Of a stretch of 18,288 nucleotides of DNA, positions 6,001-16,999 are shown in pieces (within the stretch, counting starts at the first letter, position 1; the number at the start of each line of letters is the position of its first letter). Under the pieces are notes generated by a model, which saw nothing but the letters and a program-made list of their open reading frames with translations, did not search any database and was not told where the DNA came from. Source of the DNA: a virus (lineage: Duplodnaviria; Heunggongvirae; Uroviricota; Caudoviricetes); IMG/VR virus record IMGVR_UViG_2703718771_000014; one strand, written 5' to 3'. The translations under genes were made by a program, and so were the position numbers.

Positions 6001-6181
6001 GTTTTTTAAAGTCATCTTCATCGTAGCCAGCATCGTCAATCGCAACAGCACCACGGGATATGGCAATGGATAATTTTTTCGCTTCAGCCCAGTAGAAACC
6101 GCCTTTAATACCGAGACGTTTTCTTACTTTGTCATTTTTTGCTTCGTAATACAGTGGGTAAACTTGTTTATCGGTGCTCAT
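3056..6181 (-). CDS. recE: Exodeoxyribonuclease VIII (RecE), 1041 aa
   Basis: Track ORF. From about residue 110 onward ([38 protein letters not shown]...) it is nearly identical to K-12 RecE as I recall it, including the [16 protein letters not shown] segment and the C-terminal nuclease domain. The N-terminus is longer and divergent. Confidence 0.93.
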
Positions 6182-6252
6182 TGTTTTTTTAACCTCAACT
6201 TAGATTAAAATTACTGCGAGTGATGAATAAATGTCCCAGGTTCTTCACTCAG

Positions 6253-6284
6253 GCCTGCACAGTGTGCAGGCTTTCTTTTTTTTC
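6253..6284 (+). terminator. Plus-strand intrinsic terminator-like hairpin between racC and recE (antisense to the operon)
   Basis: GCCTGCACA-G-TGTGCAGGC stem followed by TTTCTTTTTTTT on the plus strand. On the minus strand the hairpin is not followed by a U tract. Confidence 0.45.
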
Positions 6285-8785: not shown

Positions 8786-8814
8786 ATTAAACACAATGCG
8801 TTTTCTTATGTCAA
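8786..8814 (-). promoter_or_regulatory. Sigma70-type promoter for the module (TTGACA-17-TTTAAT on the minus strand), flanked by operator-like AACAC-N5-GTGTT sites
   Basis: Minus-strand read: cgtgTTGACAtaagaaaacgcattgtgTTTAATaagc. Operator-like site B (8813..8827) overlaps the -35 edge and site C (8790..8804, one mismatch) overlaps the -10. Confidence 0.55.
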
Positions 8815-8855
8815 CACGAAATGTGTTTTGTGGTGGGTGTCATATGATGATGGTA

Positions 8856-8880
8856 CAAAAAAGCCCGCTGATAGCGGGCT
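8856..8880 (-). terminator. Intrinsic terminator downstream of the repressor gene
   Basis: On the minus strand: AGCCCGC-TATCA-GCGGGCT followed by TTTTTTG, placed 30 nt after the repressor stop. Confidence 0.7.
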
Positions 8881-8910: not shown

Positions 8911-9330
8911 TTACTCCGGTGGGGGATTATCTTTAAGCCTGCCTCTCAAATATTTTTCTACATACTCATCGATTTCTTTTAGCCGGACTTCAAATAGCTC
9001 AATCATTCGTTGTTGTTCTGAGCCAGGTAGCTGGTTAAACAACTCAAGAAGTTTTCGTTGGGATTCATTTAACCACAATTCAGAAGATTCCTGTTCTCCA
9101 AATAGGAGCTCAGGAGGAGATATGCCAAGTGCCTTTCCCAATACGACAGCGTCATGCACTCCAACATTTCTGCTGCCCGCCTCATAGTTACCTATACGCG
9201 ATTGCGTCCATCCGCAGATTTCAGCAAGTTTTCCTTGAGATAAACCAAGCTTCTGCCTGCGCTCTTTAAGACGCATTGCAATTTTGTCATTGAGCCTACT
9301 AGCGGCAATTTTTTCGTTTTCTTTTTCCAT
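8911..9330 (-). CDS. Prophage repressor, XRE-family HTH (CI/RacR analogue), 139 aa, no S24 peptidase domain
   Basis: Track ORF with an HTH segment (LGLSQGKLAEICGWTQSRIGNYEAG). It is divergent from the Cro-like gene across a 96-bp region carrying palindromes, followed by its own terminator. It is too short to carry a LexA-like autocleavage domain. Confidence 0.85.
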   Translation of the reverse strand: MEKENEKIAASRLNDKIAMRLKERRQKLGLSQGKLAEICGWTQSRIGNYEAGSRNVGVHDAVVLGKALGISPPELLFGEQESSELWLNESQRKLLELFNQLPGSEQQRMIELFEVRLKEIDEYVEKYLRGRLKDNPPPE

Positions 9331-9426
9331 TGCATCCTTGTATCACGAATCGTGATTTACATAAAACACAAAACAGATTGACCATATAACACAAGGTGTG
9401 TTTAAAATTGTCATCGGAGGTTTTCA
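9331..9426. promoter_or_regulatory. Divergent immunity control region with two distinct palindromes and a candidate Cro-side promoter
   Basis: Perfect 7-1-7 palindrome ATCACGA-A-TCGTGAT at 9342..9356. AACAC-aaggt-GTGTT at 9388..9402. Plus-strand TTGACC (9378..9383), 17-nt spacer, TTTAAA (9401..9406), then GGAGG (9416..9420) and the ATG at 9427. Confidence 0.6.
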
Positions 9427-9669
9427 ATGAACAAAATTTCAACATATCGAAAACAGCTTGGGCTGTCTCAAAGACAACTTGCTGTTCAGTTAGGGTGGAT
9501 ACAAAGCCGACTGGCAAATTACGAAGCAAATTTTCGTACCCCTGGACTAGAGGAGTGCAGAAAAATTGTTTCTACCCTTAATCGGCTTGGCGCTCATTGT
9601 GGACTTGACGATGTATTCCCCCCAGACGGTAAGCATAGCGAAAACAGCATAGGAGCGGTTGATTCATGA
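9427..9669 (+). CDS. Cro-like / YdaS-like XRE HTH regulator, 80 aa
   Basis: Track ORF with a GGAGG SD and an HTH segment (LGLSQRQLAVQLGWIQSRLANYE). It is divergent from the repressor and its stop overlaps the next start (ATGA at 9666..9669). Confidence 0.8.
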   Translation: MNKISTYRKQLGLSQRQLAVQLGWIQSRLANYEANFRTPGLEECRKIVSTLNRLGAHCGLDDVFPPDGKHSENSIGAVDS

Positions 9670-10088
9670 AAATCAGGCATGAGCACATCGAATCAGTGTT
9701 GTTAGCCCTGGCAGCCGAAAAAGGGCAGGCGTGGGTCGCTAACGCAATTACTGAAGAATATCTGCGCCAGGGGGGCGGCGAATTGCCCCTTGTACCAGGC
9801 AAGGACTGGAACAATCAGCAGAATATCTATCACCGTTGGTTGAAAGGTGAAACGAAAGCGCAAAGGGAAAAAATTCAGAAACTGATCCCTGCGGTTCTGG
9901 CAATTCTTCCGCGCGAGCTGCGTCACCGACTCTGCATCTTCGATACCCTGGAACGCCGTGCATTACTGGCGGCGCAGGAAGCGTTGAGTACGGCAATTGA
10001 TGCGCATGATGATGCAGTCCAGGCCGTTTACCGGAAAGCACATTTCAGCGGTGGTGGGTCGCCCGGCGATTCTGTCGTAGTGCATTGA
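9666..10088 (+). CDS. YdaT-like (CII-like fold) protein, 140 aa
   Basis: Track ORF, translationally coupled to the Cro-like gene. The MKI.HEHI start, the C-terminal ...VVH end and the 140-aa length resemble K-12 YdaT as I recall it. Confidence 0.7.
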   Translation: MKIRHEHIESVLLALAAEKGQAWVANAITEEYLRQGGGELPLVPGKDWNNQQNIYHRWLKGETKAQREKIQKLIPAVLAILPRELRHRLCIFDTLERRALLAAQEALSTAIDAHDDAVQAVYRKAHFSGGGSPGDSVVVH

Positions 10089-10165
10089 TTGAAATTGATC
10101 GTGCCGGATTGTTTTGTTCGGTATCAGTTAAATGTAACGCTGCGAGCGTTACAAGGTGAAAACAA

Positions 10166-10954
10166 ATGGCTTCAAACTGGATAAAGCTCGAGGTTATTAC
10201 GCCGGATAAGCCGGAAATATTCAGGCTTGCTGAGATTCTGAATATTGATCCAGATGCCGCATTAGGGAAGGTTATTCGCTTCTGGGCATGGGCGGATCAA
10301 CAAATGATAGACGGTAATGCAGATTGTAACGCTCGCGGCGTTACAAAAAGTGCAATAGACCGCATCACTTTTATGGCTGGTTTTGCTGATGCGTTAATTC
10401 AGGTTGGATGGCTGGTCGAAAATGACGGTGGGCTTTCTCTACCTAACTTTGAACGTCATAACGGAAAAAGCTCTAAAAAACGGGCGGTTACAAACGAGCG
10501 AGTTACAAAAATACGCGAACTGAAACGAAAAGGTAACGCTGGCAGCGTTACACAAACGGATCAAAAAGCGTTACCAGAGGAAGAGGAAGAGGAAGATATA
10601 AATACTGATCTCCCCCTAAATCCCCCTCGCCAAAAACGAGCGTCTAAAAAATTCGAGCCGGAGGCTATCGAGCTGCCTGACTGGTTGCCGGAAACACTCT
10701 GGCATGAGTGGGTTAAGTTCAGGCAGGCATTGCGAAAACCGATTCGAACGGAGCAGGGCGCTAACGGGGCGATACGGGAGCTGGAAAAATTCCGTCAGCA
10801 GGGTTTTACACCTGAGCAGGTGATTCGACACAGCATCGCCAATGAATACCAGGGCCTGTTCGCGCCGAAAGGTGTTCGGCCTGAGACGTTGCTCCGACAG
10901 GTTAACACTGTCTCGTTGCCGGACAGTGCGATCCCGCCAGGCTTCAGGGGGTAA
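10166..10954 (+). CDS. Replication initiation / replisome organiser protein (lambda O-like N-terminal domain), 262 aa
   Basis: Track ORF with an AGGTGA SD. The N-terminus (NWIKLEVITPDKPEIFRLAEIL...) resembles the phage replisome-organiser N domain. It has an acidic EEEEEED linker, internal iterons, and sits directly upstream of the DnaC-like gene. Confidence 0.75.
   Translation: MASNWIKLEVITPDKPEIFRLAEILNIDPDAALGKVIRFWAWADQQMIDGNADCNARGVTKSAIDRITFMAGFADALIQVGWLVENDGGLSLPNFERHNGKSSKKRAVTNERVTKIRELKRKGNAGSVTQTDQKALPEEEEEEDINTDLPLNPPRQKRASKKFEPEAIELPDWLPETLWHEWVKFRQALRKPIRTEQGANGAIRELEKFRQQGFTPEQVIRHSIANEYQGLFAPKGVRPETLLRQVNTVSLPDSAIPPGFRG
10326..10575. repeat. Iteron cluster (GTAACGC-N5-GCGTTAC and GTTAC half-sites) inside the O-like gene; putative replication origin
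   Basis: Inverted repeats at 10326..10344 and 10533..10551. GTTAC half-sites at 10487..10491, 10502..10506 and 10570..10574, followed by GAGGAA repeats and an A+T-rich stretch. A fourth palindrome lies upstream of the gene at 10134..10152. Confidence 0.55.
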
Positions 10955-10960
10955 CGGACC

Positions 10961-11707
10961 ATGAAAAATATTGCGACAGGCGGCGTTCTGGAACGCATCC
11001 GCCGACTGACCCCGCCACATGTAACCGCCCCATTCAGAACGGTAGCGGAGTGGCGCGAGTGGCAACTTGCTGAAGGCCAGAAACGTAGCGAGGAGATCAA
11101 CCGCCTGAATCGCCAGTTGCGGGTGGAAAAAATTCTGAATCGTTCAGGCATCCAGCCGTTGCACCGTAAATGCTCGTTTGCGAATTACCAGGTGCAGAAC
11201 GACGGCCAGCGATACGCGTTAAGCCAGGCGAAATCCATCGCCGATGAACTGATGACCGGGTGTACAAATTTTGCGTTCAGCGGAAAACCTGGTACCGGGA
11301 AGAATCACTTAGCGGCAGCTATCGGGAATCGCCTGCTGAAAGACGGTCAGACAGTGATTGTGGTTACCGTGGCTGATGTTATGAGCGCCCTGCACGCCAG
11401 CTATGACGACGGGCAGTCAGGCGAAAAATTTTTGCGGGAGCTGTGCGAAGTAGATCTGCTGGTTCTTGATGAAATTGGCATTCAGCGCGAGACGAAAAAC
11501 GAGCAGGTGGTGCTGCACCAGATTGTTGATCGCCGGACAGCGTCGATGCGCAGCGTGGGGATGCTGACAAACCTGAACTATGAGGCCATGAAAACATTGC
11601 TCGGCGAGCGGATTATGGATCGCATGACCATGAACGGCGGGCGATGGGTGAATTTTAACTGGGAGAGCTGGCGTCCGAATGTCGTCCAGCCAGGAATTGC
11701 GAAGTGA
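10961..11707 (+). CDS. DnaC-like helicase loader / IstB-type AAA+ ATPase (YdaV-like), 248 aa
   Basis: Track ORF with a Walker A motif ([10 protein letters not shown]) and a Walker B-like motif (LLVLDEIG). It follows the O-like gene. Confidence 0.9.
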
Positions 11708-15330: not shown

Positions 15331-15620
15331 TGGTGGATTTACGTAAAGCGGCGCGGGGGCAGATGTGCACCGTCAGAATTCCTGGCTACTGCAATCACAA
15401 TCCCGAAACTTCTGTGCTGGCGCATTACAGGCTGGCGGGGACGTGCGGAACAGCGACAAAACCACACGATATGCAGGCAGCGATTGCCTGCAGCTCATGC
15501 CACGATTTAATCGACGGGCGGGTAAAAACCAGCGATTACACCAAAGAAGAATTACGCCTGATGCATGCAGAAGGTGTTTTTCGTACGCAAGAAATCTGGA
15601 GAAAGGAAGGTTATTTATGA
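15330..15620 (+). CDS. Cys-rich small phage protein (putative zinc-binding, DUF1364-like), 96 aa
   Basis: Track ORF with conserved-looking cysteines (C13, C21, C39, C54, C57). Its stop overlaps the Q-like start (ATGA). Confidence 0.65.
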   Translation: MVDLRKAARGQMCTVRIPGYCNHNPETSVLAHYRLAGTCGTATKPHDMQAAIACSSCHDLIDGRVKTSDYTKEELRLMHAEGVFRTQEIWRKEGYL

Positions 15621-16171
15621 TTTACCCAACAAATACAGGCAAAAGCGGGGAACACCTTCGTCTCACCACGCTGGAAAGTGTCTGGATTCAGGGAAAACTG
15701 CGCATGTGGGGGCGCTGGTCGTATATTGGCGGCGGTAAGACGGGAAATATGTTCAACCAGTTGCTGACCTCTAAAAAGCTGACAAAAACGGCAATTAACG
15801 AGGCGCTCCGGAGGATGAAAAAAGCAGGTCTGGACAAACCTGAACTTGAGGCTTTTTTGCGGGATATGATCAACGGCAAGCAAAAAAGCTGGCTGGTGCA
15901 TTGTACTGATGCAGAGGCGTTATGCATTGATCGTGTGATTAGTGAAGTGCTGGCAGAACACCCAGGATTGATTTGTATCCTCCGGCAACGATATGAAGGG
16001 AGGGGGATGACTAAGCGAAAAATGGCTGAATTGCTGAATGATTCACACCCTGAGTGGTGTTACGCCACGTGCCGTAATCGCATAGATGCGTGGTTGAAAA
16101 TGGCAGAGTTTATGCTCTATCTGCCGATGCGTGATGCATTCTCTTCCGGGGATCTAAAAACCGTCTGTTGA
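15617..16171 (+). CDS. Putative late-gene antiterminator Q-like protein, 184 aa
   Basis: The ATG at 15617 is preceded by AGGAAGG. The 5' part of track ORF 15365..16171 is an out-of-frame overlap. The gene ends within a near-consensus promoter that is followed by a terminator, the canonical Q context. Confidence 0.55.
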   Translation: MIYPTNTGKSGEHLRLTTLESVWIQGKLRMWGRWSYIGGGKTGNMFNQLLTSKKLTKTAINEALRRMKKAGLDKPELEAFLRDMINGKQKSWLVHCTDAEALCIDRVISEVLAEHPGLICILRQRYEGRGMTKRKMAELLNDSHPEWCYATCRNRIDAWLKMAEFMLYLPMRDAFSSGDLKTVC

Positions 16172-16441: not shown

Positions 16442-16999
16442 ATGACAACTCAAATTTCTGTTGAAACTCTCTCCCCGATCACCCATAACCGGATTCCTGT
16501 TATTACCACCGAACTTTTGGCGCAGCTTTACGGCACTGAGCCGGTGCGTATTCGCCAGAATCATCATGAGAACAAAGTACGCTTCGTTGAAGGGAAACAC
16601 TTTTTCAAAGTTGTTGGTAATGACCTTAAAGAATTGCGGGTAGCTTTAAACTACTCACAAAATCCCATCTCTCCCAAAGCCCGCTCCCTTATCCTCTGGA
16701 CAGAACGCGGAGCAGCCCGCCACGCAAAAATGCTCGAAACCGATCAGGCGTGGGATGTGTTCGAAAAACTGGAAGACTGCTATTTCAGTCAAAAGGATCC
16801 GTCAGCGCCAGTTGCATGCCAGAAAAGTTACGACACGCGAGTTCTCTGTTATCAGCGAGGCGGTGTCACTGTTTCCACAATTCAGTTGCGGGATGATGAT
16901 ATTGTTATTTCCCTTGAGTCATGGCTGGAACTGGCGAGAGCCAATGGTTGGTTTGTTGTTCGCAGAGATAAACTGGTGGAAAGGCTGATGCAGCTTTAA
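16442..16999 (+). CDS. ORF6N-domain antirepressor-like protein, 185 aa
   Basis: Track ORF. The N-terminal motif LAQLYGTEPVRIRQNHHENKVRFVEGKHFFKV resembles the ORF6N consensus as I recall it. It is the first gene after the late promoter and terminator. Confidence 0.65.
   Translation: MTTQISVETLSPITHNRIPVITTELLAQLYGTEPVRIRQNHHENKVRFVEGKHFFKVVGNDLKELRVALNYSQNPISPKARSLILWTERGAARHAKMLETDQAWDVFEKLEDCYFSQKDPSAPVACQKSYDTRVLCYQRGGVTVSTIQLRDDDIVISLESWLELARANGWFVVRRDKLVERLMQL

Follow-up and report, generated by a model that had tools for sequence, protein, structure and literature searches.

A palindrome beside a prophage repressor gene as the probable OR3-equivalent site of a lambdoid right operator

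In an 18,288-bp stretch of phage DNA (hereafter the window), a perfect 15-bp palindrome lies just upstream of a repressor gene and close to a second inverted repeat of different sequence. What reads this palindrome, and are the two repeats one kind of site or two? The initial annotation had proposed two operator classes serving two regulators of different specificity. We favour, with a probability of about 0.8, the reading that the palindrome is the repressor-proximal, OR3-equivalent site of a three-site right operator in a lambdoid, Rac-like prophage with a single operator class. To judge from the sequence, the palindrome is very probably an operator. The analysis shows the sequence with its statistics, the spacing and conservation of the sites, their covariation with the recognition helix, and a register shared with lambda; which protein binds the palindrome, in what order the sites fill, and exactly which promoter and transcription start are used, we infer.

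The palindrome and the operator pattern

The palindrome (9342–9356), ATCACGA-A-TCGTGAT (ATCACGAATCGTGAT), is a perfect 7-1-7 inverted repeat that extends no further, positions 9341 and 9357 both being t. It lies 12–26 nt upstream of the repressor ATG (9330–9328, minus strand), and its end at 9356 is 32 nt from position 9388, where the second motif, AACACAAGGTGTGTT (9388–9402), begins. The initial annotation gave all of these coordinates correctly, and its placement of the palindrome in the repressor/Cro intergenic control region also holds. Specifically, the repressor gene (8911–9330, minus strand) encodes a 139-aa protein to which Pfam and alignment assign an N-terminal HTH_3 domain and a DicA-like C-terminal helical region without a peptidase domain, while the Cro-like gene (9427–9669, plus strand) encodes an 80-aa HTH_3 protein. 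The two genes are divergent, with a 96-bp gap and an HTH_3 domain on either side, as in a lambdoid switch.

The bare palindrome is not statistically remarkable; its significance lies in its context. The window holds five perfect 7-1-7 palindromes versus 1.4 ± 1.2 expected from 300 dinucleotide shuffles, 74% of which contained at least one, and about 0.006 would be expected within the 96-bp intergenic region. The palindrome does differ in sequence from the second motif, as had been claimed, and literally so, but the difference comes down to a single T/A change per arm (ATCAC versus AACAC); arm length, spacing and the CAC/GTG core are the same.

Both repeats fit one pattern, AWCAC-N5-GTGWT, which has three exact matches in the window (8813, 9342 and 9388) versus 0.10 expected. 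All three flank the repressor gene, and none of 200 shuffles of the window gave three exact matches. When one mismatch is allowed, there are five matches versus 2.0 expected, among them 8790–8804 (AACACAATGCGTTTT), which lies 23 bp from the 8813 site.

Between the divergent genes, sites at 9342, 9365 and 9388 follow one another in 23-bp steps, two of them full sites and one a half-consensus site. The OR3-equivalent, that is, the palindrome itself (9342–9356, ATCAC-GAATC-GTGAT), is assigned on its exact match to the pattern, its invariant arms, and its position in relatives, and it is centred about −19 from the repressor ATG and the predicted transcription start. The OR2-equivalent (9365–9379, AACAC-AAAAC-AGATT, AACACAAAACAGATT) is centred about −42 from the repressor ATG; it lies 23 bp from both neighbours, and one of its half-sites, an invariant AACAC, fits the consensus. 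Since this middle site has a single consensus half, the count of three operators would rest, for the third, on spacing and conservation. The OR1-equivalent (9388–9402, AACAC-AAGGT-GTGTT) is again an exact match with invariant arms. With +1 at 9330, the three right sites are centred at about −19, −42 and −65.

On the other side of the repressor gene, just past its intrinsic terminator (8862–8880, minus strand), a second pair of sites stands 23 bp apart. The OL2-equivalent (8813–8827, AACAC-GAAAT-GTGTT) matches the pattern exactly, while the OL1-equivalent (8790–8804, AACAC-AATGC-GTTTT) has one mismatch.

Predicted promoters and conservation of the arms

The sites overlap predicted promoters on both sides of the repressor gene. 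The putative rightward promoter of the cro operon, PR (9378–9408, plus strand), has its −35 element TTGACC at 9378–9383 and, as −10 element, either TTTAAA at 9401–9406 (17-bp spacer) or TAAAAT at 9403–9408 (19-bp spacer); the same TTGAC(A/T)-N17-TTTAAT layout is found in relatives and in PL. The OR1-equivalent lies inside the PR spacer, and the OR2-equivalent overlaps the −35 element by 2 bp. The putative leftward promoter, PL (8786–8814, minus strand), is near-consensus, with −35 TTGACA at 8809–8814, a 17-bp spacer, and −10 TTTAAT at 8786–8791, and is conserved in the E. coli and Salmonella copies. Here the OL1-equivalent lies inside the spacer, and the OL2-equivalent overlaps the −35 element by 2 bp. 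A second operator cluster, conserved in relatives, thus sits over TTGACA-N17-TTTAAT at the leftward promoter.

The repressor promoter (PRM-like) is read from a predicted extended −10 element, TG-A-TACAAG (TGATACAAG; 9337–9345, minus strand), whose register is common to relatives and lambda. Its TG and first T fall in the right arm of the palindrome, and the ATG follows 6 nt further on, which implies a leaderless or near-leaderless repressor mRNA; the transcript is probably leaderless. The −10 hexamer, which is TACAAG in the window and TAAAAG in Salmonella, is without the conserved T at its end, and the −35 element, TTTATG, is weak. An SD-like AAGGA at 9335–9339, 4 nt ahead of the repressor ATG, would alternatively suit a leadered mRNA, made either from an upstream establishment-type promoter or from a true start within the palindrome; the palindrome would then stand at or just after +1 instead of at −19, where it would still be repressive. 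A strict σ70 consensus scan called neither PR nor PRM, in the case of PR because position 2 of TTTAAA is not A. The promoter assignments, and with them the overlap of operators with PR and PRM, accordingly rest on elements read by eye and on comparison with relatives and lambda.

The arms of the sites are conserved in close relatives. The comparison comprises 80 IMG/VR loci from E. coli and Salmonella, with repressors 84–100% identical to that of the window, which together give 33 distinct in-register intergenic variants. Among these variants, none of the 25 arm columns (both arms of the 9342 and 9388 sites and the AACAC half of the 9365 site) is variable, versus 36 of the 71 other intergenic columns (Fisher p = 1e-6). 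The palindrome keeps its arms while its centre takes the forms GATTC, GAATC and GCATC, the 9388 site keeps its arms around nine or more forms of the centre, and the 9365 site keeps its AACAC half while the other half varies. The left operator likewise combines invariant arms with variable centres. Such a combination of invariant arms and free centres is the signature expected of a dimeric protein that would read the outer arms. Furthermore, the T/A difference between ATCAC and AACAC is kept in all 80 related loci.

Recognition helices, relatives and known switches

The recognition helices of the two proteins are GWTQSRIGNYEAG in the repressor and GWIQSRLANYEAN in Cro. They share GW.QSR..NYE, and the proteins are 45% identical over 42 residues of the HTH. 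With recognition helices that are nearly identical, the repressor and Cro would both be expected to read the same sites.

Operators of more distant relatives point in the same direction. In coliphage mEp213, the OR sites (AACACATATTGTGAT, AACACAAATCGTGTA and ACCACGGAATGTGAT) and the OL sites (AACACGTGTTGTGAT, ATCACATTTCGTGTT and AACACAATTTGTGAT) stand in steps of 23/24 and 22/24 bp, and single operators mix the two halves, as AACAC...GTGAT and ATCAC...GTGTT. The left operator of Aeromonas phage pAEv1818 pairs ATCACTATTCGTGAT with GACACGTATCGTGTC (ATCAC-N5-GTGAT and GACAC-N5-GTGTC), 23 bp apart, and the left-operator sites of Citrobacter phage Chris1, at 1972, 1995 and 2018, are also in 23-bp steps. 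A middle site with one good half occurs in relatives as well.

Across 16 or more loci from several genera, the outer base of the operator tracks the recognition helix. In particular, the repressor helix GW.QSRIGNYE with the Cro helix GW.QSRL(S/A)NYE goes with A-x-CAC half-sites, GW(A/S)TASRVGNYE with GW(K/G)RSRLSNYE goes with G-x-CAC, and GWSG(S/A)(S/P)R(I/V)ANYE, for which the Cro helix varies, goes with (T/C)TCAC. The shared helix, and the covariation of both helices with the outer base, lend indirect support to the idea that repressor and Cro would bind common operators in opposite orders of affinity. In homologues with the same C-terminal domain but an unrelated HTH, the operator motif is wholly absent and other repeats take its place. 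These homologues (L094–L103 and L105, from Klebsiella, Sodalis, Serratia, Kluyvera, Pluralibacter, Dryocola, Phytobacter, Symbiopectobacterium and Lonsdalea loci) have an unrelated N-terminal HTH (e.g. ...AGVTPQAVNGWFKKG...) and GTTTAC/TAAAC-type repeats in the control region, and are a natural domain swap that serves as a specificity control.

The position of the palindrome is conserved along with its sequence. Of 16 diverse loci, 15 have a site of the form xxCAC-N5-GTG(A/G)T that begins 26–29 nt ahead of the repressor start, and 15 loci show the proximal site, then TG-n-TAnnnn, then 6–9 (mostly 6) unconserved nucleotides, then ATG, a layout that would represent an extended −10 promoter with a transcript starting at or next to the start codon. 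The repressor-proximal site deviates from the PR-proximal one in relatives too, as GTGGT or GCCAC variants. Together with the strict conservation of the T/A difference, this deviation suggests tuned affinity, and tuning within one operator class, as between lambda OR3 and OR1, is plausible.

The lambda OR3/PRM layout is matched to the nucleotide. Written in the direction of cI, the lambda sequence is [TATCCCTTGCGGTGATA]GATTTAACGT-ATG and that of the window is [AATCACGATTCGTGATA]CAAGGATGCA-ATG. In both, the repressor-proximal operator ends in GTGATA, followed by exactly 10 nt and the repressor ATG, and the lambda register, GTGA-TAGATT-TAACGT-ATG, is that of the predicted PRM of the window. Both also have divergent repressor and cro genes, three operators 23–24 bp apart with a 6-bp gap between the proximal and middle ones, and a second cluster at the leftward promoter. 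In lambda, the centre of OR2 falls near −42 relative to PRM. The half-site core of the window, ATCAC/AACAC, is that of lambda TATCAC and TAACAC. The N-terminal domain of the repressor is 31% identical to lambda CI (E = 2e-6), the match being confined to the N-terminal 75 residues, and a PDB sequence search with the repressor gives matches that include the 434, lambda and P22 repressors. A Gln-Ser pair opens the recognition helix in both proteins, aligning with Gln44-Ser45 of lambda CI. In structure 1LMB, it is positions 2 and 4 of TATCAC that Gln44 and Ser45 contact, which fits A-x-C of the window half-site. Unlike lambda CI, the repressor of the window has 139 aa, no S24 peptidase/RecA-cleavage domain, and a DicA-like C-terminus; unlike lambda Cro, the Cro of the window is an HTH_3 paralogue of the repressor rather than a protein of the lambda Cro fold. 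The operators of the window also differ in being 15-mers, with an A/T-rich and apparently uncontacted centre, and the role of CII is taken by a YdaT-family protein.

Other characterized switches share parts of this arrangement. CP-933P of E. coli O157:H7 (PaaR2/YdaS/YdaT) and Rac (RacR/YdaS/YdaT) are, like the window, lambdoid cryptic-prophage immunity systems with a short repressor, an XRE-type Cro and YdaT, and the intergenic region of CP-933P, at about 97 bp, is about as long as that of the window. In CP-933P, the footprints of PaaR2 and YdaS fall on overlapping operators that cover PRM and PR, with YdaS filling the PRM side first; the paaR2 mRNA is leaderless, as is that of cI, and there is an extra PL/OL (PMC8630535). 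CP-933P differs in its consensus half, GTTTAGTAA, in its HTH recognition helices, and in the paaA2-parE2 toxin-antitoxin pair that follows the repressor where the window has a terminator. The CI of mEp213 is 58% identical to the window repressor in the N-terminal HTH (helix GWASQSRIGNYESG), and mEp213 has A(A/T/C)CAC-N5-GTG(A/T)T operators, three each in OR and OL, at the same positions relative to cI; unlike the window repressor, its CI is a complete LexA-family protein that includes the cleavage domain, and the phage has a lambda-like CII. Relatives of mEp213 with a comparable cI/cro region include ECP1 and CurroJimenez. A literature search found no publication characterizing the mEp213 operators, and in the searchable literature there was no match to the exact operator sequences of the window and no published description of its immunity type. 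In mEp213 (L085, 1498–1506), the second ATG gives MNRTETIAARIK, matching the family N-termini, and stands 6 nt after a TG-A-TATAAA extended −10 element, as expected for a leaderless cI; the annotated cI start (MRMNRTE...) is probably two codons too long.

In its C-terminal part, the repressor resembles DicA/Gifsy-type short repressors, not LexA-family CI. Pfam gives only HTH domains in the 139-aa protein and no Peptidase_S24 domain with an Ala-Gly cleavage site; the C-terminus aligns with those of DicA-like short, non-cleavable-type repressors, sharing the motif LF.QLP..EQ...RLKEIDEYVEKYL of its short-repressor family, and one close relative has been annotated 'DicA' by its depositors. It shares with the DicA/Gifsy type a short length and the lack of a peptidase domain. 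Gifsy repressors are inactivated by antirepressors, not by cleavage (PMC3121763).

Proposed switch, rival readings and prophage setting

In the proposed mechanism, dimers of repressor and of Cro would read A-(A/T)-C-A-C half-sites spaced by 5 bp. The outer site (9388) would lie in the PR spacer, the middle site would abut the −35 elements of both promoters, and the palindrome would span roughly positions −26 to −12 of the promoter that serves the repressor gene, with the TG of the extended −10 element among them, so that a protein bound there would stop the synthesis of repressor. If lambda and CP-933P are a guide, Cro would be the first to occupy the palindrome once the prophage is induced; the repressor would do so only when its concentration is high, as negative autoregulation. 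The conserved T (ATCAC, not AACAC) would tune their relative affinities. The regulatory roles offered by the initial annotation are retained in part: the position of the palindrome would fit repressor autoregulation or Cro shut-off, but nothing that we found points to an antirepressor-responsive site. In the window, which spans part of the prophage, the LexA box CTGT-N8-ACAG is no more frequent than chance predicts, and no LexA-controlled antirepressor was found.

The strongest challenge to a single operator class is that the palindrome could be read by one HTH protein only, for example as a Cro-only site, with AACAC-N5-GTGTT as a repressor-only site. The T/A difference, strictly conserved in every related locus, speaks for such a division, as does a pairing found in phage vB_Apl-pPE4 (L083) and in L174 and L181. 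There the Cro proteins, 76–100% identical to that of the window and with the same helix GWIQSRLANYEAN, accompany operators that are all xTCAC, the proximal site again having ATCACG, so ATCAC may be a Cro-preferred half-site. Nevertheless, the two recognition helices are nearly identical, single operators of mEp213 combine AACAC with GTGAT, the two kinds of site agree in core, arm length, spacer and 23-bp spacing, and Cro must also act at PR and PL in every characterized lambdoid switch (PMC8630535). A Cro preference for ATCAC is plausible and exclusivity is not, and we regard the division into separate sites as unlikely. Set against the single pattern, the 23-bp lattice, the mEp213 hybrids, the pAEv1818 pair and the near-identical helices, the wider claim of two operator classes for two regulators of different specificity is not supported.

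It is very unlikely that the palindrome belongs to another regulator (a YdaT/CII-like protein, a host factor or an antirepressor-linked factor) or arose by chance. YdaT proteins do bind within racR-ydaS-type intergenic regions in Rac (PMC11879457), yet the palindrome has no similarity to TTGATT-N6-AATCAA, and a YdaT-box-like repeat occurs separately, at 9659–9676; an SOS or antirepressor link finds no counterpart in the LexA-box count. Chance alone would supply one perfect 7-1-7 palindrome per 18 kb, but conservation, spacing and helix covariation are strongly against chance as the explanation, which was rejected on four grounds only, namely the motif family, the 23-bp spacing, the conservation of the arms and the covariation with the helices. 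A CRP, FNR or Fur site was considered and rejected, as neither orientation nor sequence seems to fit their consensus sequences. Least credible is an RNA hairpin in the repressor transcript that would control translation or stability. In its favour, the SD-like AAGGA and the ATG follow closely on the palindrome, and transcripts from an upstream establishment-type promoter would include the repeat; against this, the minus-strand RNA 9366–9322 folds at −5.8 kcal/mol (z = −0.9), 42 of 200 shuffles fold as well, a 7-1-7 repeat is unable to form a full stem, the arms are invariant without compensatory changes in the 33 variants, and sites of the same type stand in promoter spacers outside that RNA.

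In the L083, L174 and L181 loci, this Cro stands alongside another repressor (GWSGSSRIANYEAG), the operators are of the (C/T)TCAC/ATCAC kind, and DNA homology to the window starts at the cro ATG, which together indicate a mosaic junction inside the switch region. The pairing suggests that Cro tolerates different outer bases in its operators. More speculatively, and we consider it unlikely, the immunity module may read half-sites of lambda specificity; if its resemblance to lambda reflects a true overlap in specificity, lambda CI or Cro and the regulators of the window could cross-bind each other's operators, which would amount to cross-talk between nominally heteroimmune prophages. As part of this unlikely reading, with one Cro allele in two prophage types that differ in repressor and in operator outer base, the repressor alone would set immunity specificity and Cro would read only the CAC core.

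The preferred reading, an OR3-equivalent within one operator class, corrects the view of two regulators with two motifs and yields a map of operators and promoters, open to test, for one prophage immunity type (OR1, OR2, OR3, OL1, OL2, PR, PL and a probably leaderless PRM). The natural covariation of helix residues with the outer base of the operator is a small, clean data set on HTH specificity. The immunity type is an undescribed one of a very well known kind of switch; as an ordinary lambdoid switch, it has modest general significance, the points of note being the nucleotide-exact lambda register, the lambda-like half-sites, and one Cro allele across two prophage types.

The window represents part of a lambdoid E. 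coli prophage of Rac-like type, in which int, recT, recE and a Q-like gene are also found. Many complete E. coli genomes contain prophage DNA that matches the 1.4 kb around the palindrome at 99% identity or more. Of 5426 such genomes searched, 153 have a match spanning at least 80% of the 1401-bp query, and there the region sits between a recT/recE/kil arm and a replication/Q/lysis arm. Relatives of the immunity type occur in Salmonella, Citrobacter, Klebsiella, Serratia and other genera.

Several further features of the prophage were noted. A gene for a YdaT-family protein, the CII-equivalent, follows cro (9666–10088, plus strand), and a YdaT-box-like repeat of the form TTGATT-N6-AATCAG (TTGATT-CATGAA-AATCAG) spans its ATG (9666) at 9659–9676. 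The published YdaT boxes are TTGATT-N6-AATCAA in CP-933P and ATGATT-N6-AATCAA in Rac, both spanning the ydaT ATG (PMC11879457, PMC9986795). Given a repressor that lacks a cleavage domain, an ORF6N-domain protein (16442–16999) encoded downstream of the Q-like antiterminator gene (15365–16171) is a candidate antirepressor. Immediately ahead of the gene for the 1041-aa RecE-like protein (start at 6181, minus strand) stand a 15-mer with one mismatch to the operator pattern, ATTACTGCGAGTGAT (6210–6224), which is probably there by chance, and a perfect palindrome, GCCTGCACAGTGTGCAGGC (6253–6271). Finally, a 19-bp palindrome, GTAACGCT-N3-AGCGTTAC, occurs in three copies about 200 bp apart (10134–10152, 10326–10344 and 10533–10551), just upstream of and inside an ORF that has no Pfam match (10166–10954) and precedes a gene for an IstB/DnaC-like ATPase (10961–11707); the three copies may be replication-origin iterons or initiator-binding sites.
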